From assembly GCA_016432465.1 (NCBI GenBank), contig CP066690.1, forward strand, positions 786,724 to 850,723: a stretch of DNA of 64,000 nucleotides, read 5' to 3'. Below, piece by piece: positions 4,260-51,428 of this stretch (position 1 is its first letter; each line of letters begins with the position of its first letter). The stretch is from Candidatus Sungiibacteriota bacterium. Lineage in GTDB: Bacteria > Patescibacteriota > Minisyncoccia > Sungbacterales > HO2-52-23. Made by a program: the position numbers and the translations under genes. The notes under the pieces were generated by a model. That model saw only the letters and a list, made by a program, of their open reading frames with translations, was not told the origin of the DNA and did no database searches.

Positions 4260-4341
4260 TCCCCAAGTAGTACAAAGGGGGTGTGCGTGAGGCAACTTGC
4301 GTACACCCTGTTTTTTTCGGCGCAACGAACTTTACTATTTA

Positions 4342-4446
4342 TCCCCCCACCCTCCCAGAATACCCCGCAGCTTGCTGCGGGGATGAATGGGCGCCGTAGA
4401 AATCCTTCCCGCGGGGTCCACTACCCCGCTGGGAAGGTGGGGGGAT
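4342..4446. repeat. TIR element family copy 1 (TCCCCCCACCCTCCCAG ... CTGGGAAGGTGGGGGGA; ~105 bp)
   Basis: 17-bp terminal inverted repeats enclosing a GC-rich core. Near-identical inverted copy at 5820-5925, related copies at 14232, 44094 and 51346. Confidence 0.8.
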
Positions 4447-4476
4447 TTATTCAAACCTTTAAGTGTGCTATAGTAA

Positions 4477-5788: not shown

Positions 5789-5819
5789 CCCTCAATATAA
5801 ATATGGCAGTCAAAAATAA

Positions 5820-5925
5820 ATCCCCCCACCTTCCCAGTGGGGTAGTGGACCCCGCGGGAAGGATTTCTACGGCGTCTATTCATCCTCGCAGCAAGCTACG
5901 GGGTATTCTAGGAAGGTGGGGGGAT
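5820..5925. repeat. TIR element copy 2 (inverted relative to copy 1)
   Basis: Reverse complement of 4342-4446 with a few substitutions. Confidence 0.8.
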
Positions 5926-5943
5926 AAACAATATCTTGGGTTT

Positions 5944-11047: not shown

Positions 11048-11872
11048 TTAACTGCAGGGCAAGGCGTTTAAGGTTTGTAGCATCAACTTGCCTTCGCCGG
11101 ACTCGCCCTGCTCCGGATCGCCAACAAAAATAGTATAAGAGCAGTTTTTGATGGGGTTTTCGTCATCTTTTCTGGTGAAGTCTTGAGACTCCCAACGTTC
11201 TTGTGTGGAAATAAAGGCGGTGATAGTTATATGGTGGCTCACCAAAAGAACTTCTCTTTCGGAGAACTCACGGATAAGTTTTCCCGAAAGAAGCCGCATC
11301 CGTCCCTCTACCCCCAGAACATTTTCTCCCTGCGGATAGCAATAGTCATATTTGCCGTCTCTCAAGTAAATGTACCTTTGTTCTGGGTGGAAGGTTTCCA
11401 TTACTCTCCAGTTATTGTAGAGACCGGCAAGCCCGATGTCTATTTCTCTAATAAGCGGTTCAGTCTCCTGTTTTATTCCAGCAAGTTCCGGCCATCCGCG
11501 GGTCATTCCTTCCAGTGTCTGTTTGGTGCGAAGATACGGCGAGACCAGAATAACGTCGGGAAGCCGTGCATCAGGAAGAATTTTCAGGGTTCGCCCCAGA
11601 CGTTCTGCCTGCAGCCAGCCGGTATCAGTTAGGGGTGTTAGTCGGTTACTGTAAGGCAGGAAATACTTTCTATACATTTTTACTGCCAACCCACGCAGTT
11701 CCTTTGAGGCTTTTACATACGGCCAATGTCTTTGGAACTTATCTAGATTAAATTCCTGCTCAAAGAGCTTTACAAAACGCTGATATTCCGGATCTTTCCT
11801 TTGCTGTTCTTTGACTCTGTTAAATTCTGATTCTCCGTGGCGCACTAAGATGACTTTACGCGGCCATTTCAT
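11048..11872 (-). CDS. Histidine phosphatase superfamily protein (phosphoglycerate-mutase-like)
   Basis: N-terminal ILVRHGESEFN (RHG catalytic motif) and C-terminal LLVSHH second histidine. Confidence 0.6.
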   Translation of the reverse strand: MKWPRKVILVRHGESEFNRVKEQQRKDPEYQRFVKLFEQEFNLDKFQRHWPYVKASKELRGLAVKMYRKYFLPYSNRLTPLTDTGWLQAERLGRTLKILPDARLPDVILVSPYLRTKQTLEGMTRGWPELAGIKQETEPLIREIDIGLAGLYNNWRVMETFHPEQRYIYLRDGKYDYCYPQGENVLGVEGRMRLLSGKLIREFSEREVLLVSHHITITAFISTQERWESQDFTRKDDENPIKNCSYTIFVGDPEQGESGEGKLMLQTLNALPCS

Positions 11873-31827: not shown

Positions 31828-31900
31828 TCCGGTGTAGCTCAGTGGTAGAGCGGCTCCCTGTTAAGGAGACGGTCGCAGGTTCGAATCCTGCCACCGGAGC
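31828..31900 (+). tRNA. tRNA-Asn (anticodon GTT)
   Basis: TCCGGTG/CACCGGA acceptor, anticodon loop CTGTTAA, T-loop GGTTCGAATCC. Confidence 0.8.
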
Positions 31901-32833: not shown

Positions 32834-34315
32834 TTATATTTTATTAAATTTTAGTGATAGATTTCGATTCAATTCTTCAAAGCGTTTAACGGATAAATCT
32901 AAAAATTTTGGTTCGGTATCGATGCCTATAAATTTTCTACCATGAAGATAGGCCGCGATGCCAGTAGTGGAACTCCCGGTGAATGGGTCAATAACTAAAT
33001 CACCTTTATTTGTGCTTGCGAGTACTATTCTTTTTAACAAATCTTCTGGTTTTTGTGTAGGATGTTTCCCAAACCTTTTTTCTATCGGTCTTGGCGTGCC
33101 CATTGACCAAACCGAGCGCATTTGGAGACCTGGTTTTTTTAAATTATCCTCTGCCCAATGGCCATTTTTCATTAGATCATAATTGAATGTATGTTTCGCC
33201 TTTCTTTCTTTTCTCGCCCAAATTAAGGTTTCGTGACTTGCGGTAAAATATCGGCAACTAAGATTCGGTGACGCGTTTGGTTTAAACCACGCAATATCGT
33301 TTAAGATATGATAACCGAGGGCCTGTAGGGCGTGACCACACTGATAAATTGAATGGTAAGTACCACTGACCCAAAGAGTGCCGTGCGGCTTCAAAACTCT
33401 CCGACACGCCTCCATCCATTTGTAATGAAAATCATAGTCATCTTTGAACCCCTTGCTTTTGTCCCAATCTCCCTTATTCACGCTAACCATTCGCCCTGCG
33501 TGAACCGTAAAGCCGCCATTGGAAAGGTTGTAAGGTGGATCGGCAAAAATCATATCAACTGAGTTTTCTGGAAGTTTTGCCAGTACATTGAGACAATTCG
33601 CTTGGTAAAGTTTAAACCCTGGCTTTTCATAATATGGTTTTGATGTAGTTACTTTCTGTTCTCTGTTGTAGAATTTTATTTCTGGAGAAATTTCTAATGG
33701 GGTAGTGTTGATGTTCTCACGAATAACATCGAGAACTATTCCTTGTATTGAAACATCCCGGCCATTTCTAAAAATAAGCGGCTCCATGCTTCTATTTGCT
33801 GGCTGTAAACGGATATGACCGCGCTCTCTATAAAATTTCTTTAGCGTCGCTTCGTGATTGTCTATAAGCGCAACTACTTTTTGGCCATTGTCAGCAACGG
33901 CTTGTTGTTTCACTAAAACGACATCGCCGTCGTTAATATTCTCGTCAATCATACTGTTGCCAACTACGCGGAGGGCATAGAATTCACCACCTCGAGGCAA
34001 CTTACTTTGAGGGACCGCGATGGTTTCCTTTTCTTGTATCGCTTCAATCGGCTGGCCCGCGGCAATAGTCCCGAGTAGCGGGATTTTCACCAGCCTGGCG
34101 GCTTTTTCCACTAAACTAATACCACGCGTCGAATTATCATCTTTAGTAATAAATCCCTTATCTGCCAAAGTTCCGATATGCTGGTGGATCGTAGAAAGTG
34201 ATGCGAGTCGGAAGTGTTTTTTAATTTCTTCCAAAATTGGTGAAAGGCCCTTCTTGTTGATATAGGACTTGGTATAGTCGTAGATTTGTTTTTGTCGCTT
34301 GGTTAGAGTAGCCAT
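32834..34315 (-). CDS. LexA (complete wHTH + S24 autopeptidase) fused to C-terminal beta-class N6-adenine/N4-cytosine DNA methyltransferase
   Basis: Residues 1-200 align with LexA: LTKRQKQIYDY, cleavage-site IPLLGTIAAGQP, catalytic VVGNSM Ser and LKKF Lys. Residues ~270-490 carry IFADPPYN (motif IV) then DPFTGSSTTGIAA (motif I). Confidence 0.75.
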   Translation of the reverse strand: MATLTKRQKQIYDYTKSYINKKGLSPILEEIKKHFRLASLSTIHQHIGTLADKGFITKDDNSTRGISLVEKAARLVKIPLLGTIAAGQPIEAIQEKETIAVPQSKLPRGGEFYALRVVGNSMIDENINDGDVVLVKQQAVADNGQKVVALIDNHEATLKKFYRERGHIRLQPANRSMEPLIFRNGRDVSIQGIVLDVIRENINTTPLEISPEIKFYNREQKVTTSKPYYEKPGFKLYQANCLNVLAKLPENSVDMIFADPPYNLSNGGFTVHAGRMVSVNKGDWDKSKGFKDDYDFHYKWMEACRRVLKPHGTLWVSGTYHSIYQCGHALQALGYHILNDIAWFKPNASPNLSCRYFTASHETLIWARKERKAKHTFNYDLMKNGHWAEDNLKKPGLQMRSVWSMGTPRPIEKRFGKHPTQKPEDLLKRIVLASTNKGDLVIDPFTGSSTTGIAAYLHGRKFIGIDTEPKFLDLSVKRFEELNRNLSLKFNKI

Positions 34316-39798: not shown

Positions 39799-40146
39799 AT
39801 GCAATTTTTAATTAAAGTCCTAATCTCGGCGTTGATAATTGCTCTGGTGTCTGAGGCGGCACGACGGTTTACTTTGGTCGCCGCTCTTATTGCCTCGTTG
39901 CCTCTTACATCAATTTTGGCTATCATGTGGCTTTATCGTGATACAAATGATGCACAAAAGATTATAGATTTATCATCAAATATCTTTTGGGCAGTATTAC
40001 CCTCGTTGCTATTCTTTATTGTCCTACCAACACTTTTAAAAATGGGGTTTAAGTTTGGTTCGGCTATGGTTATATCATCAATAGTCATGTTCTTTGGGTA
40101 TACCATCTATGCCGTTTTACTCAATAAGCTTGGAATAAAGATATAG
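39799..40146 (+). CDS. Small membrane protein (3-4 TM helices)
   Basis: Hydrophobic 115-aa ORF lying between the two halves (B and A) of the left repeat. Confidence 0.35.
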   Translation: MQFLIKVLISALIIALVSEAARRFTLVAALIASLPLTSILAIMWLYRDTNDAQKIIDLSSNIFWAVLPSLLFFIVLPTLLKMGFKFGSAMVISSIVMFFGYTIYAVLLNKLGIKI

Positions 40147-40289: not shown

Positions 40290-40324
40290 GGTTAGTAATA
40301 AAAAAGATGCCCAAGATACGGGCA

Positions 40325-41440
40325 TCAGCTTTTGATTCGCTCTCTGTCTTTGCGGAATGCGTCAAATGCGCCTATGGCAATATCAAGAAGATCTTCGCGA
40401 AGGCACAGTTCATCGCAGAGCATCATGGTGCGGTAGCCTATGTCGTACAACCACGTTAGATCGCAGAAGTCTGCACAGGAGGGAATATCCCTATTGATAA
40501 GTGATAGAAGCGTCGTCTCTACCAGTCTCGCTGGATCCTGTTTGTTTAAGTCAAGGGCACGAACCAGTTTAATTGCTTCAGAGATTTTGCGGTTTCTAAT
40601 ATCGTTGACTACCGAAAGAAGAATTCTTGAGCCAACACACGCTTCGGGGTCTTTTCCAACAATCAGTCTTAGGGCGTCCACTATCATGTGTGGCCACTCC
40701 AATTCTATAAAAAGATCGCCGCGGGCAGCCACCAGAATAAGGTTGTCTGATTTTCGGAATCCTCGCGCCACGAAATTAAGACCGCGCCGGTTTTCTATTT
40801 TGAGCATTACGACTGTATCTCTGCCAATCAATTCTTGAAACTCGTCAATATCTCTTTGGTCTTCCACGTAGGACAGGAAGTAGTTCTTAAATCCTGCCCT
40901 TTGAACTTTTTCCAGTTTGCTTTTCTCTTCATCGGTAAACAGTGGGCCGCTGGTTTTTAAGGATGGGTCTAGGATGTGAATAGACTCTCCGGGGTAAACC
41001 ATGTACGCAGGTCCACCGCGAAAAACAAGACGCCGGCCGTCCTCCTCAAGTTTTTCCAACATGGCGCTATCGGCGCCGGCCTTGAATAAAACCATCACCG
41101 GCGTTTTTACAGAAATTGGGTGATTGAGTCTCAAGTCTAAGTGGGTGGTGTTTTCCTTGTCTACCCACGCAACACGCAATTGTCTGCCCTTGGCGTCAAA
41201 GTACAGAGGCACTGCGGGCTTAAGGTCGTGCAGGGCTGTAAGTTCTTTTTCCAGTTCCGGATTATTTATCATGGCGCTATTCAGTCGTATTCCTGCAATT
41301 CTTTTGTCATCCATAAATTTAGTGAAATGCGGGAAGCTTGACCACAGTGTTACCATAAGCTTGAGGGGTTTAAATAAAAGAGCCTCTGGAGACTTGACTC
41401 GCGAGAGGCTCGGGAAAAATCTACGCAGTCCTGTGACCAT
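40325..41440 (-). CDS. Pyruvate-kinase-like TIM-barrel domain protein (PK/HpcH-type KIEN...ARGDL motif)
   Basis: VMLKIENRRGLNFVARGFRKSDNLILVAARGDLFIE resembles the PK barrel active-site stretch; the rest is unassigned. Confidence 0.35.
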   Translation of the reverse strand: MVTGLRRFFPSLSRVKSPEALLFKPLKLMVTLWSSFPHFTKFMDDKRIAGIRLNSAMINNPELEKELTALHDLKPAVPLYFDAKGRQLRVAWVDKENTTHLDLRLNHPISVKTPVMVLFKAGADSAMLEKLEEDGRRLVFRGGPAYMVYPGESIHILDPSLKTSGPLFTDEEKSKLEKVQRAGFKNYFLSYVEDQRDIDEFQELIGRDTVVMLKIENRRGLNFVARGFRKSDNLILVAARGDLFIELEWPHMIVDALRLIVGKDPEACVGSRILLSVVNDIRNRKISEAIKLVRALDLNKQDPARLVETTLLSLINRDIPSCADFCDLTWLYDIGYRTMMLCDELCLREDLLDIAIGAFDAFRKDRERIKS

Positions 41441-41450
41441 CTCTGACTCC

Positions 41451-42416
41451 TTAGTTTTTTCTGATCGTTACAGATCGTCCTTCGCCCAAAGACTTCTTTG
41501 ACTGTTCGCCGCTCGGCAAAGCATGTATGGTGTGCAAAGACGTCATTACAGTTTTGACCTGCTCCGGTGTTTGACGACCACTAAGCTCTTTCCGGAAATA
41601 ACCTATTTTCCCGGCTTCTCGGGCCATGATGCCGAAAATTACGTCAACCACGCGGCCGGGGTCAGCCAGAAGTGCAATGTGGTCTTCACCGACCAAAGCA
41701 GCCCAATTTTCATGAACTCTCTTGGTAGTGCCGGTTAGCGGACCATCAGAAAGCACCTCGCGGCCATAGGGCTTTTGAATAAAGTAGACCGAGAATTTCT
41801 GTTTCAATTCGTCAAAGATCTGACTGGTTCTTACCTTCTGGGGAAGCTTTACACGAGCGATCAATTCTGCTTCTTCCGGATCAACGAAGTCATAGGGCGA
41901 TTCGTCGCCAATGACGATCAGAAGCGGCCTCACGGCATTGGGCATAACAACGTTTCGTGCACAATAGAGAGCCGCAAGTTCATAGCTCTCCTGGGTTGTG
42001 CCGCCGCCTTCACCCTCAATCACCAGTTCCTTAAGTCTTTGAGCGTGGTCTGTTCCTTTGGCAAAGGGTCGCATCTGGAGCGGATACTTCTCGTTGTTGC
42101 GGGCATCGCCTATAGCACCCCAGCTAATTTCTACGTCTGTCCCCATGTATTCTGTCTTTGCCTCGTGTTCCAGATATGGCATTTTTGAGAACATGGTTGC
42201 TGGCCACTCACCCATTGAGCCTGACTGATCCGTAACAATAGCCATTGGGTTTTCGCTTTCAGTAGAGATACTTGCTGGAACCAAATCTTTAACGGTAGTC
42301 CCGCGGCTGAGGGCCTTATCCATGCTAGTTGCGGCAAAGTCTCGGTAATTCCTGCGTGCGCTCGCAAAGTCGTGACCAGCCCAGACGCCCGGACTATAAT
42401 CGCCAGCCTCTGACAT
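41451..42416 (-). CDS. von Willebrand factor A (VWA) domain protein
   Basis: MIDAS motif VTDQSGSMGEW. The start is moved to the internal Met (MSEAGDY...) to leave a 160-bp divergent promoter region. Confidence 0.55.
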   Translation of the reverse strand: MSEAGDYSPGVWAGHDFASARRNYRDFAATSMDKALSRGTTVKDLVPASISTESENPMAIVTDQSGSMGEWPATMFSKMPYLEHEAKTEYMGTDVEISWGAIGDARNNEKYPLQMRPFAKGTDHAQRLKELVIEGEGGGTTQESYELAALYCARNVVMPNAVRPLLIVIGDESPYDFVDPEEAELIARVKLPQKVRTSQIFDELKQKFSVYFIQKPYGREVLSDGPLTGTTKRVHENWAALVGEDHIALLADPGRVVDVIFGIMAREAGKIGYFRKELSGRQTPEQVKTVMTSLHTIHALPSGEQSKKSLGEGRSVTIRKN

Positions 42417-42580
42417 ACTGCCTCCTGTTGTTTTGGGATTTTCGGAGTGGTACCCATCCTGTCCACTCCGACCCACCAGTGATTGTACAGCTAAGTCACC
42501 TATTCTGTCAATGGCTTGACAAAAATGACACTTCTGGGTAGCATATAAGCAGCTCCCCAATTTTTATTATAGGTGGTTTG

Positions 42581-43636
42581 ATGGCTCACGCTAGGTCCAT
42601 TGAAGAACTTTACGAAGTGCTGGAAGTTAGTCTAAAGGCTTCTCCGGAGGTTTTGCATGCAGCCTTCAGGGCTCTTATGGCTAAACATCATCCAGATCCG
42701 CCCAACAGAACGGAAGCAGATGAGGAGCGTGCTAAAGAAGTCAGCGAGGCGTATGCCGTTCTTTCCGATCCCAGGGCCCGAGCGAGGTATGAACATAGGT
42801 TTAGAGACTTGACCGGCAAGATTGTTGGAGAATACCGCATACTGGCAAAAATTGCCGAGGGCGGATTTGGATGCACTTACAAGGCCGAGCACATGACTAT
42901 TGGCGAACCGGTGTGTATTAAGCACTGTCATAATCTGGATCCTTTTGATGAAGCAATTCTGATTGAGGAAGCTAAGGCCATGTGGGATCTTAGACATTAT
43001 TCAGTTCCGGCAGTTCGTGGTTTGTTAAGAATGCCGGACGGAAAGCTGGCTTTAGTGATGAGTTATATTCCCGGTCCAACGCTGACTCAACTCGTTGAGA
43101 AGTTATCAGAAAACAGCAGGAGATTGGATCCGGAACATGTAGCTTGGGTCACGGAGAGGGTTTTAAATGCTTTGCGTTACATCCACTATCAAGGTATAGT
43201 GCACGGTGATTTAAAACCGCACAATATCATTGTTGAGCCGGACAAACATTTAGCCTCTGTTGTTGACTTTGGGCTGTCCAAGATTAAACCTAAAGCCAAG
43301 TCCGGAAGTAAGGGTTACACTGAGTTTTTTTCGGCCCCCGAAGTTATAGCCGGCGGAACGATATTGCCGGAGGCTGACATGTATAGTTTGGGCATGACAA
43401 TGATTTATGCCTTATCCGGCGATCCGGACTGTTTGTTACGAAAAGAGGTACCAACCAATACACCCCTGCCCATGCAGAAGTTCATCAAGAAATTGATTGT
43501 CCGTGATCCTTTGTCTAGACCAAAATGGCCGAGTAGCCCGAATGAGATGGATCTTTGGGACGAGTTTTTGGAGATTCGCAGAGAATCTTTTGGCAGGAGT
43601 CGTTCTAGTCTGAAACCAATTCCGGGATTTAACTAA
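42581..43636 (+). CDS. J-domain (DnaJ-like, HPD) fused to Ser/Thr protein kinase
   Basis: N-terminal LYEVLEVSLKASPEVLHAAFRALMAKHHPD...AYAVLSDPRARARYE (J domain). The kinase part has GGFGCTYKA (Gly loop), HGDLKPHN (catalytic loop) and DFG. AGGTGG RBS and ATG 42581; hairpin terminator ~43645-43682. Confidence 0.75.
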   Translation: MAHARSIEELYEVLEVSLKASPEVLHAAFRALMAKHHPDPPNRTEADEERAKEVSEAYAVLSDPRARARYEHRFRDLTGKIVGEYRILAKIAEGGFGCTYKAEHMTIGEPVCIKHCHNLDPFDEAILIEEAKAMWDLRHYSVPAVRGLLRMPDGKLALVMSYIPGPTLTQLVEKLSENSRRLDPEHVAWVTERVLNALRYIHYQGIVHGDLKPHNIIVEPDKHLASVVDFGLSKIKPKAKSGSKGYTEFFSAPEVIAGGTILPEADMYSLGMTMIYALSGDPDCLLRKEVPTNTPLPMQKFIKKLIVRDPLSRPKWPSSPNEMDLWDEFLEIRRESFGRSRSSLKPIPGFN

Positions 43637-44093
43637 TCTGTTTTGGGGTTTCCCCGCACGGAATAAACCGTGCGGTGTTTTTATCTGGCCTTTTGGAGAT
43701 GCTCCAAAAGGCCAGATAAAACTGGCTTCATTTGTTTCCAAACAATAGTGAGTTGAGGCGTAGTGAAAACAGGATTATCCACAATTTGAATTTTGTATAA
43801 TTAAAAACGCCCTTCTCTTGGCGAGTTGGGCGAGGATGTAACTCGTAGCGTTGTGGACCGATATACGTCGGGAGCAGGGCCGCCAGCGCGGTGACCTTCC
43901 GATTTCATCGGGCAACTGCTACGGGGCTAAAACTCTCTGCGTTGTTGACTGGGTCAGCCGCTGGCACTGCCCAGGCAACGCAGAGGGATTATAACAACCT
44001 AAGCATAGCATAATCAGTCATGACCTGTCAACCACAAGTAACCCCTCATAAAAAGCATCGGTGTCTGTTACGGAGGCGTGTCAAGCGCAATAA

Positions 44094-44274
44094 ATCCCCC
44101 CACCTTCCCAGCGTGGTATTGGACCCCGTGGGAAGGATTTCTACAGCGCCCATTCATCCCCGCAGTCCAGCCTTCGTCCCGCTTCTAGCGGGACTACAGT
44201 CGCACGCCGCCATAGCTTTGGCGACGGCGCGCGGAGTAGGCCAAGCTACGAGGTATTCTGGGAAGGTGGGGGGA
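44094..44274. repeat. TIR element copy 4 (~180 bp, with ~75-bp internal insertion)
   Basis: Termini TCCCCCACCTTCCCAG / CTGGGAAGGTGGGGGGA, core collinear with copy 2 plus extra GC-rich segment. Confidence 0.75.
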
Positions 44275-44282
44275 TAAAAGCG

Positions 44283-45719
44283 TTATGGGGTTGGGTGCTT
44301 CTTTAGAAATTTAACCCTGCCCAGCGAAAAGAGGCCGTAGCTTGCCAGCAAAAATATAAAGGTATTGACCGGATAGCGGTGCCGGCCGTAGTCGCTGAAG
44401 CCCGCAACAATGGAGGTGGTTGCGTAATATATAATAAGTAGAGCAAGGAGGAGAGCAATCACTCTCCCAGCGCCCCCCCTTTTAACTGCCAAAAAAGCGC
44501 CGAGAGCCCCCAAGATGGTCAGAAATATCCAGAAAATTCTACCCGCTAATGGTATTAAAAAAAGTACTCCGAGTCTTTGCCAGACGAGCTTGGCAAGCGC
44601 CCCGGGCCCTTCTTTGATAAGCGTCACGGATGGGGAAAAGTCCATGGCAAAGCGCGGAATTACCCTGTATTGCCGTAAATAAGTGGCATATAAATCTTGG
44701 GTAAAGAAAGAATTTATGCTTATCGCAAAAACAGCCAGCGTTTCTTTGGGATTTTCAAGCATAATTTTAATTCCTTCACGCGCCAACAAAGATCCGTAAG
44801 CCGGATTTTCTTTTAAATCCTTAATAGTAAGGCCTTCCCGTAAAGCCAGGGTTTTATAAAGTTTTTCCTGCACTTCGCCATAAGGCTGGTCTGTTTTATA
44901 GTTCATTACCGAGGTGCCAAGAGACGAATAAATGTTGCGAACTCCGGTGGTGGACACGCTTATTGTGCCAAAGCGAATGTAGTTGCGGAGCAGCCAAGGC
45001 GAGAGGGTGAGGAGAAAGAAGACGGTAAACACTAACAGGATTAAGGCCCTCTGTTTAGCCGCCAGCACGATTCTTTCTTCGGGGGCGGGATCCGACCGCA
45101 CTCTTTTTAGGGATCCTTTAAGAAGAAGAATGAAAAGAAAAACGGCGGCCGGTATAAAAAGAAATTGAGCGTGAGGGCGAGTAAGAGTAGAAAGGCCAAG
45201 AAGTAAACCGGAAAAGAGAGCCGAACGGACTGAAAAATCTCCCAGCAGTTTTATAAAGAAAAAAACAGCCAGAAGCAAAAAGAAAACAGCAACCACGTCG
45301 CTCATTACGGTAATACTCCATAAAACCCCCAAGGGCTCAAACGCCGTGAGTCCGGCGGCCACTCCGGAGACGAAAGGGCGTACAGATAAACGCTCGCCAA
45401 TTCGGAAGACCACCAACGGCATTAACGAAGCAAGAATAATTTGTAAAATCAAAACCGGAAGTATGGAACTGGCTATAAGTTTTGATCCGGCAATTAAAAG
45501 CGGATAAAGAGGCGGGAAAAAGGCGGTCGGTAAAAAAGGCGGTTCGGGTTCCCGGGAGAATCCGTGTCCTGCCAGAAGATTATTGGCAGTTCGCAAAAAT
45601 ATTCTGGAGTCAGTAAGTTCCAGCCCCGTTTCTCCAAAATTGAGAAGCAGCGCAGAAAGGAGCAGCAAGCGAACAACCAAAGCAAGAAGGATAATTATAA
45701 TAAGTTTTTTTGGAATCAC
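44283..45719 (-). CDS. ArnT/PMT-like (GT39/GT83-type) polytopic glycosyltransferase
   Basis: About 12 TM helices and an N-terminal loop with conserved acidic/aromatic pattern typical of lipid-linked-sugar glycosyltransferases. Confidence 0.55.
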
Positions 45720-51330: not shown

Positions 51331-51345
51331 ACGTATTCCGGATTT

Positions 51346-51389
51346 ATCCCCCCACCTTCCCAGAATACTCCGCTGGGAAGGTGAGGGGA
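51346..51389. repeat. TIR element copy 5 (minimal: termini only, 44 bp)
   Basis: TCCCCCCACCTTCCCAG-AATACTCCG-CTGGGAAGGTGAGGGGA. Confidence 0.75.
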
Positions 51390-51428
51390 TTCATTGTCAC
51401 AGAACTACCGTCGTGTTAATCTTTAAAA

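Follow-up and report, generated by a model that had tools for sequence, protein, structure and literature searches.

What does a J domain do on a bacterial Ser/Thr kinase, and does a protein that combines the two act alone? The question is raised by a gene of Candidatus Sungiibacteriota (assembly GCA_016432465.1) that lies at 42581..43636 on the plus strand (stop codon included) of the 64,000-nt stretch of DNA analysed here, positions 786,724-850,723 of contig CP066690.1, which we refer to as the window. An earlier, sequence-only reading had described the product as an N-terminal J domain fused to a Hanks-type kinase with a Gly loop, a VAIK-like Lys, HGDLKPHN, and DFG, and had treated the gene as stand-alone. 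Both domain assignments were borne out by our analysis, whereas the stand-alone view was not supported: the protein, here called J-kinase, appears as one third of an obligate cassette, together with a vWA protein that has a metal-ion-dependent adhesion site (MIDAS) and a pyruvate kinase-like (PK-like) enzyme.

The J-kinase product of 351 residues is identical to the database protein P0001 (Candidatus Sungiibacteriota, Patescibacteria/candidate phyla radiation, CPR). Its open reading frame (ORF) spans 42578..43636 on the plus strand, with the ATG at 42581 as the likely start and a Shine-Dalgarno-like AGGTGG at 42571-42576, four bases before this ATG. Residues 10-71 (nt 42608-42793) match the DnaJ profile PF00226 with 56.9 bits against a Pfam gathering cut-off of 27.8 (E 2.3e-15). 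The match runs over profile positions 2-63 of 63 and is thus full-length, the HPD motif can be read at residues 37-39 (nt 42689-42697), and the possibility that profiles would fail to support the J domain did not materialise. The first 80 residues alone match the solved J domains of DNAJB8/B6, T. thermophilus DnaJ2, and E. coli DnaJ (E 2.5e-11 to 2e-8), with 37% identity to the E. coli protein over 65 residues. Residues 85-285 (nt 42833-43435) match the kinase profile PF00069 with 117.5 bits (cut-off 31.7, E 9e-34), and the nearest solved structures of this part are StkP, PAK, MELK, and PknA. NCBIfam gave partial matches both to DnaJ models at residues 9-73 and to PknB-type kinases at residues 83-280.

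All catalytic residues of the kinase are present, and its motifs are readable in the sequence: the Gly loop AEGGFG, K114 in VCIK (nt 42920-42922), E130, the catalytic loop HGDLKPHN (residues 208-215, nt 43202-43225) with H208, D210, K212, and N215, the DFG beginning with D229 (residues 229-231, nt 43265-43273), the APE-like P253-E254, and DPLSRP. HGD replaces HRD, and because this absence of an Arg before the catalytic Asp is invariant in 115 of 115 family members, the J-kinase is a non-RD kinase. Such kinases are usually independent of activation-loop phosphorylation, and the missing Arg defines a subclass without removing the protein from the Hanks-type family. No Pfam domain was found C-terminal to the kinase domain; the C-terminal ~65 residues end in a conserved tail, FGRxRSxxKPIPGF, which in the window copy reads SFGRSRSSLKPIPGF. 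Judged by these profiles and motifs, the J-kinase is a class-C J-domain protein with a complete non-RD Hanks-type Ser/Thr kinase instead of a client-binding region.

A homology search with the J-kinase returned 885 proteins at E <= 1e-5, and domains were scored in the best 120 clusters at 90% identity. Both DnaJ and Pkinase were carried by 116 of these 120 clusters, the remaining 4 being fragments, and the source names of the homologues were Sungbacteria, Parcubacteria, and Paceibacterota. When 1.84 billion representatives were searched exhaustively with HMMER, 300 clusters (50% identity) reached E <= 1e-30, and about 60 of the best 150, which were inspected, resemble family members. A profile search of genome contigs with the kinase alignment caught the generic kinase motif, family members making up 3 of the 80 loci listed. 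The 77 generic Hanks kinases from other phyla in this search served as a negative control, and none of them had a J domain. The description of the architecture as rare in bacteria therefore stands outside this lineage and does not stand within it, where almost all scored clusters have both domains. By this distribution, the J-domain/kinase fusion defines a Patescibacteria family and is not a one-off.

Residue conservation was assessed in an alignment of 115 full-length family members. K114, E130, H208, G209, D210, K212, N215, D229, and E254 are invariant in all 115, and the HPD is intact in 103 and altered in 12, which speaks against a chance occurrence of these motifs. Pairs of family members are on average 48% identical over the J domain and 63% over the kinase domain, and therefore both domains are under constraint. 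The signature of helices II and III of the J domain in the family, AAY+AL..+YHPD ... EAY.VLSD...R..Y, agrees with that of functional J domains.

The genes next to the kinase gene were followed in two sets of loci. In a first set, which consisted of seven related loci from an encoding-contig lookup and a genome scan plus the window, the genes of the J-kinase, the vWA protein, and the PK-like enzyme stood side by side in 8 of 8 loci. A second set of 80 metagenome loci was pulled with a profile of the vWA gene, independently of the kinase. The J-kinase gene was directly upstream of the vWA gene in all 55 loci with room for it (at least 1.3 kb upstream), the PK-like gene was directly downstream in all 55 loci with room on that side, and both were present in all 45 loci with room for both. 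Most often the three genes form a single collinear operon in the order kinase > vWA > PK-like and are separated by tens of bases. The kinase gene was collinear in 52 loci and divergent in 3, which belong to close Sungbacteria relatives and have the layout of the window, so that the adjacency survives inversion. When every flanking ORF of 72 loci was clustered all-against-all, these three were the only shared neighbour families (72, 68, and 66 loci), and the next one, a Thg1-like family, occurred in 11. The same clustering ruled out a fourth conserved cassette gene, be it a PP2C, an Hsp70, or any other. On this gene order, J-kinase, vWA-MIDAS protein, and PK-like enzyme form an obligate three-gene cassette that travels undivided across the chromosomes of Patescibacteria and the genomes of huge phages. 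The public-database labels are 'protein kinase', 'VWA domain...', 'pyruvate kinase', or 'hypothetical protein'. One full cassette was seen on a contig binned as 'Candidatus Woesearchaeota archaeon' (L010, CAIWSB010000093.1), which reflects either mis-binning or a transfer into DPANN archaea.

In the window, the vWA-fold protein is encoded divergently from the kinase at 41451..42416 on the minus strand and has 321 residues. The protein had zero matches in Pfam, NCBIfam, and PADLOC and matches phrog_2971, a family without assigned function (E 3.5e-23). A sequence-profile search against the Protein Data Bank (PDB) also gave no match, and fold comparison alone succeeded. An AlphaFold2 model based on 32 homologues (mean predicted local distance difference test score, pLDDT, 87.9) was matched by Foldseek to the VWA domain of NorD at the top, followed by integrin beta I-like domains and SpaC (E ~2e-6, prob 1.00). 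The MIDAS residues form the pattern D63-x-S65-x-S67 in 'VTDQSGSM', and D63, G66, and S67 are invariant in the family. The N-terminal ~25 residues, MSE[SA]GDYxPG..GHDF..AR..Y, are near-invariant across the family and yet modelled at low confidence, which is a signature of a linear motif binding something. With regard to the gene start, the mechanically called ORF (41451-42560, minus strand) begins 48 codons upstream of the conserved start MSEAGDY at 42416, with a TTG at 42560; homologues and database gene calls all begin at the conserved Met, and with the TTG start the ORF would run into the divergent promoter region.

The PK-like enzyme follows downstream of the vWA gene at 40325..41440 on the minus strand and has 371 residues. 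Its score with the pyruvate kinase barrel profile PF00224 is 25.6 bits, below the cut-off of 30, and that with TIGR01064 is 27.4 bits against an NCBIfam cut-off of 306. The family profile, on the other hand, matches solved pyruvate kinases (E 1e-9), and with the AlphaFold2 model (pLDDT 90) Foldseek returned pyruvate kinases only from the PDB (E 2e-16, TMq 0.61-0.67). What the protein has in common with pyruvate kinase is the A-domain barrel, the B-type insertion, and the catalytic Arg/Asn/Asp/Lys/Glu/Asp set: the invariant R52, N54, D82, K84, R89, K214, E216, and D242 align with R32, N34, D66, K68, R73, K220, E222, and D246 of PykF. Unlike pyruvate kinase, the protein, which has ~305-370 residues in the family and scores below the Pfam cut-off, stops after the barrel, and the C-terminal alpha/beta domain for allostery and tetramerisation is absent.

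As a tentative answer to the opening question, which we hold to be quite possible although not yet probable, the three products may constitute one complex or pathway, a chaperone-coupled phospho-switch over a minimal phosphoenolpyruvate (PEP)/pyruvate phosphotransferase. The J-kinase would bind or phosphorylate the vWA protein and/or the PK-like enzyme, and the vWA protein would be a metal-dependent adaptor, through its MIDAS site, or a phospho-target. Such a part is proposed for vWA proteins in TerY-P triads and is played by them in MoxR-vWA systems. HPD-mediated docking of ATP-bound DnaK is the established mechanism of J-domain proteins, and in the same way the J domain would dock ATP-bound housekeeping DnaK, the assumed partner, onto the assembly. 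Recruitment of DnaK would be the natural consequence of a canonical, family-conserved J domain with an HPD. Hsp70 would then remodel, release, or stabilise the partner of the kinase, with the kinase domain standing in for a client-binding domain, and the PK-like enzyme, without its allosteric C domain, would be the regulated output or, alternatively, a local ATP source. The cassette might serve host physiology, phage takeover, or conflict. In a more specific form, which we regard as rather doubtful, the cassette would be a hitherto unrecognised kind of Hsp70-coupled enzyme control and an Hsp70/J-domain counterpart of the MoxR-vWA activases, in which vWA-MIDAS adaptor and J-kinase load DnaK onto the minimal PK-like enzyme and phosphorylate it, thereby gating the flux from PEP to ATP, and it would be exchanged as a unit between huge phages and Patescibacteria hosts. 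If this were true, an Hsp70-coupled enzyme-control cassette would also mark CPR-infecting huge phages.

Several points weigh against a phospho-switch of this kind. A physical interaction among the three proteins is presupposed, as is the idea that the PK-like enzyme is the target and not, say, a supplier of ATP. A search for Hsp70 genes was negative both across the 64-kb window and up to 6 kb from each cassette. Eleven relatives of 253-274 residues are complete kinases with a Met at the start of the kinase domain and the FGR tail kept, in which the J domain is absent and which indicate that it is partly dispensable. In P0366 and P0397, an N-terminal vWA domain precedes a J-like domain without HPD and the kinase. 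Finally, in ~200 Bixzunavirus (cluster C) mycobacteriophages, an annotated 'serine/threonine kinase' is immediately followed by a vWA-like gene (30% identity); the DnaJ match of this kinase is weak (E 0.0014) but includes the HPD ('SAVHPDRV'), and HGA and IDW replace HGD and DFG, so that it is probably, from its motifs, a pseudokinase retaining the J motif. As its HPD was kept while catalytic Asp and DFG were lost, kinase and J activity are not always needed together. Kinases without J domain, vWA fusions without HPD, and the mycobacteriophage pseudokinase with HPD together indicate that J and kinase activities can be lost separately. Such a separate loss of either activity fits a scaffold-like complex in which each modulates a shared core of kinase fold and vWA protein. 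It also counts in favour of the proposed complex that the extra N-terminal vWA domain on the J-like kinase coexists with downstream vWA and PK-like genes (P0397, locus L193).

The variant cassette of locus L193 (1-4937) consists of the kinase with the extra N-terminal vWA and HPD-less J-like domains, followed by separate vWA-like and PK-like genes. In front of it stands another kinase-like gene, the product of which recalls TerY-P kinases by a zinc-ribbon-like tail of the type CxxC...CxxC. The mycobacteriophage pair is represented by gp264-gp265 of Mycobacterium phage Roots515 (L091, 2757-4942), with a polynucleotide kinase and a PurA-like gene nearby, and is experimentally tractable.

As the cassette also occurs in phages, it could alternatively be a phage-derived takeover or auxiliary module. 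Primarily a huge-phage gene set on this view, it would use its J domain to hijack host DnaK, its kinase to rewire host proteins, and its PK-like enzyme to boost ATP from PEP, and the Sungiibacteriota copy would have been captured or domesticated. The model for such a hijacking is Rki of phage RB43, a class-C J-domain protein that binds host DnaK (PMC3486835, PMC13254874). Rki resembles the phage copies of the cassette in being a phage-carried J-domain protein, but it lacks a kinase, and its gene is not linked to vWA or PK-like genes. Of the 49 unique J-domain protein sequences from phages in a census that PMC13254874 cites, 48 are without a second known domain. A tblastn search of the vWA protein against GenBank phages matched 219 records. 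One of them, LR745208.1 (485 kb, deposited as uncultured phage), has the entire cassette in collinear order with 39-43% identity to the window proteins and with HPD, HGD, and DFG of the kinase all intact. Among IMG/VR contigs, the vWA gene was found on 19 (45-485 kb), 17 of which have the full cassette. The neighbours there (R2K ATP-grasp, Thg1, RNase HII, EF-G, ADP-ribosylglycohydrolase, ThyA/ThyX, DHFR, SmpB, endonuclease VII, and HNH) are typical of huge phages.

An origin as a phage module is further in line with the degenerate kinase and vWA pair of the mycobacteriophages and with a quick neighbour-joining tree, calculated without support values, in which IMG/VR and cellular kinases are intermixed. 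The same holds for the cassette of the window, which is bracketed by direct repeats of 31 and 37 nt beside a low-GC island. Its flanks differ on both sides from those in a related Sungbacteria genome (L004), which means that the context of the cassette is not syntenic even at ~75% protein identity. We nevertheless regard this explanation as unlikely on balance. The window is clearly chromosomal, with dnaG-rpoD, two tRNAs, NAD-synthesis genes, and an envelope glycan cluster and no phage structural genes nearby, the G+C content of the cassette equals that of the surrounding genome, the cellular copies are intact, and the IMG/VR calls may include misclassified CPR contigs. Moreover, the explanation concerns origin and role and is compatible with the mechanism of a chaperone-coupled switch. 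With respect to the genomic surroundings, several virus-classified contigs have a full-length EF-G gene immediately after the PK-like gene (among others L099 8132-10273, L102 7919-10000, L111 7883-9961), and in 11 loci a Thg1-like gene lies no more than 6 kb from the cassette, indicating a preference of the cassette for the company of translation and RNA-repair genes in large phage-like genomes.

The coupling of a vWA protein to a kinase also recalls the TerY-P systems and the Yeg module of E. coli, and with the former a role in anti-phage defence or counter-defence. In E. coli K-12, the HSP70-family gene yegD adjoins yegI (kinase), pphC (PP2C), and yegL (vWA), which provides a precedent for an Hsp70 link, and in TerY-P triads vWA proteins are proposed as adaptors and the kinase carries a C-terminal zinc ribbon or OB fold (PMC10542128). 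The cassette shares with these modules the genetic coupling of a MIDAS-bearing vWA protein to a Ser/Thr kinase, a link to Hsp70 (in E. coli through the adjacent gene, in the cassette through the fused J domain), PP2C as an occasional neighbour, and mobility through varied genomic contexts. It differs in that its third gene is PK-like and PP2C is not part of it, in that its kinase has an N-terminal J domain instead of a C-terminal zinc ribbon or OB fold, and in that its vWA protein aligns with YegL over the MIDAS strand only (55 columns, hhalign probability 50%) and has no vWA or TerY match in Pfam or PADLOC. Because there is no PP2C, no zinc-ribbon or OB tail, and no clear vWA similarity at the TerY level, the cassette is not a TerY-P member. 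It may work like this closest known system without belonging to it.

A defence function of the TerY-P or kinase-effector type, in which infection would be detected by the vWA protein or by the J domain with DnaK, and would be aborted through phosphorylation of host or phage proteins by the kinase, is in our view distinctly unlikely. The best PADLOC matches of the kinase are indeed mad6 and PD-T4-6 (E 3e-38 to 6e-35), next to a partial NCBIfam MADS6 match, but these PADLOC matches are confined to the generic kinase core and score like Pfam Pkinase. TerY-P-like modules of vWA, kinase, and PP2C act as defence systems (PMC10542128), and phage sensing by bNACHT25 requires DnaJ, as cited in PMC12619734. 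A PP2C gene within 6 kb of the cassette in 4 of the 80 loci also counts in favour, but PP2C was absent from the other 76 and, by tblastn, from the entire window. Loci with PP2C as a neighbour are L004, L113, L171, and L174. In L004, the related Sungbacteria genome, the PP2C phosphatase gene (11092-11835) directly follows the kinase, whereas there is none in the corresponding part of the window, 43637-44282. The cassette is patchy and mobile and adjoins an island with a LexA-methylase fusion, which speaks for a defence function. On the other side, the vWA and PK-like proteins match no defence model, no nuclease or other toxic effector was linked in the neighbour clustering, phages themselves carry the cassette, and defence systems are not known to include a metabolic enzyme of the PK-like kind. 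With two of its three proteins (vWA and PK-like) unmatched, membership of the cassette in a PADLOC-DB 2.0 defence system was rejected.

It is in principle conceivable that the J domain does not engage Hsp70 at all and serves only for structure or dimerisation, or as an autoinhibitory lid on the kinase, the protein then being simply the kinase of a vWA-kinase pair. The members without J domain, the HPD-less vWA-J-like-kinase fusions in the same family, the 12 full-length members with altered HPD, and the lack of a dedicated, linked Hsp70 gene in the window and the loci agree with this view. We consider it very unlikely all the same, as the HPD is kept in 90% of the full-length members, the signature of helices II and III is that of functional J domains, and the Pfam J-domain score is twice the cut-off. 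In this sense, the mycobacteriophage homologues are informative, since they keep the HPD without the catalytic residues of the kinase, as would be expected if HPD function is selected. Least probable is a stand-alone signalling kinase whose J domain brings DnaK to general kinase substrates and whose neighbours are irrelevant: the kinase gene of the window is equipped with a promoter-like site and a terminator of its own and is divergent from the other two genes, but vWA and PK-like genes co-occur with it in 100% of cases wherever the contig permits, usually in one collinear operon.

Comparison with known proteins that combine the two domains, or that use vWA adaptors, sets the proposed chaperone-coupled switch in context. 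GAK (DNAJC26) had been named as the eukaryotic analogue, together with auxilin (DNAJC6). As a functional analogy this is fair, since GAK joins kinase and J domain in one polypeptide and its J domain directs Hsc70 to one assembly, the clathrin coat. The architecture is a different one: the J domain of GAK/auxilin is C-terminal and accompanied by PTEN-like and clathrin-binding regions, while that of the J-kinase is N-terminal with no further Pfam domains, and nothing suggests a common descent of the bacterial and the eukaryotic fusion. The order of the domains is matched more closely by the DNAJB1-PRKACA chimera of fibrolamellar carcinoma, with J domain and then kinase in one chain, the J domain of which recruits Hsp70 to the kinase. 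This chimera (PDB 4wb7 and related entries) matches the J-kinase with both domains, at residues 9-71 for the J domain and 153-282 for the kinase. It is, however, a somatic human fusion and not an evolved family, its kinase is of the AGC type, and it has no vWA or PK-like partner genes. The MoxR AAA+/vWA pairs NorQ-NorD and CbbQ-CbbO combine a vWA-MIDAS adaptor with an ATP-driven remodelling machine aimed at one enzyme, and the VWA domain of NorD is the top structural match of the cassette vWA protein. This is an analogy only: the motor of the cassette would be a J-recruited Hsp70 and not a MoxR ATPase, and a kinase is interposed. A prior description of the J-domain/kinase fusion or of the cassette was not found in the literature searched (bacterial J domain and kinase; mycobacteriophage kinase; the survey PMC10410713), and an earlier mention in the J Mol Biol 2020 census of bacterial and viral J-domain proteins is possible.

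The window copy has some local particularities. In the 164-bp spacer between the vWA start at 42416 and the kinase start at 42581, a divergent control region (42482..42544) contains two sigma-70-like, promoter-like sites that are consensus matches only: TTGACA-17-TAGCAT on the plus strand (42516-42544) and TTGACA-18-TACAAT on the minus strand (42511-42482). An intrinsic-terminator-like hairpin begins 18 nt past the kinase stop on the plus strand (43654..43685, hairpin 43654-43675), with the sequence CCGCACGG-AATAAA-CCGTGCGG and then TGTTTTT, which implies that the kinase gene is monocistronic in the Sungiibacteriota genome. A second terminator-like hairpin with T-run (40296..40326, hairpin 40326-40306, minus strand) immediately follows the PK-like stop and ends the vWA/PK-like unit. 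The direct repeats that bracket the cassette are located at 39738-39768/43731-43761 (31 nt, 97%) and 40253-40289/43695-43731 (37 nt, 89%). They are contiguous on the right and split on the left by an ORF for a 115-residue membrane protein (39799-40146), and the 37-nt unit holds the hairpin AAAGGCCAGATAAAACTGGCTT. These repeats could be the recombination scar of a mobile cassette or a reused terminator element. As a general trait of the cassette they were rejected, as none were seen in 5 other loci.

A PP2C pseudogene 3' of the kinase was also considered and rejected, as tblastn was negative and the 646-bp spacer contains terminator hairpins and repeat-derived structured DNA. The G+C-rich part of this spacer (43795-44285, plus strand) has a folding energy of -208 kcal/mol against -171 +/- 7 for shuffled sequences (z = -5.3), and Rfam gave no match in the spacer downstream of the kinase at either threshold. 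Pieces of it recur at 4338-4451, 5815-5928, and 51343-51396 (88-100% identity in stretches of 26-77 nt), and hence the region is at least partly an interspersed palindromic repeat family of the repetitive extragenic palindromic (REP) or miniature inverted-repeat transposable element (MITE) type and not a single non-coding RNA gene. Further away, the island at 32-38 kb adjoins a tRNA-Asn gene (31828-31900), and its low G+C content (0.39-0.40 versus ~0.47 elsewhere) suggests that it is integrated. It contains a gene at 32837-34315 (minus strand) for a 493-residue protein with LexA DNA-binding, Peptidase_S24 autocleavage, and N6/N4 DNA methylase domains, an unusual fusion of an SOS-type self-cleaving repressor and a methyltransferase, followed by a DUF4238 protein gene and large ORFs without family match.

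By its predicted domains, the cassette thus appears to be a new variant on the theme of vWA-kinase signalling that is common to CPR bacteria and huge phages. J-domain proteins set where Hsp70 acts, and a conserved family of prokaryotes and phages with a 'client-binding' part that is an active kinase would tie chaperone targeting to Ser/Thr phosphorylation, a link that to our knowledge has so far been known mainly from eukaryotic GAK and the oncogenic human fusion. The strict linkage offers testable partners in the form of a MIDAS adaptor and a PK-like enzyme without regulatory domain. With its occurrence in huge phages and a reduced form in easily handled mycobacteriophages, the cassette provides a possible case of host-virus exchange as well as an experimental entry point. 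As the metabolism of Patescibacteria is minimal, reconstructions of glycolysis in these organisms may be affected by the label 'pyruvate kinase' on an enzyme that is linked to a vWA protein and to a kinase with a J domain.

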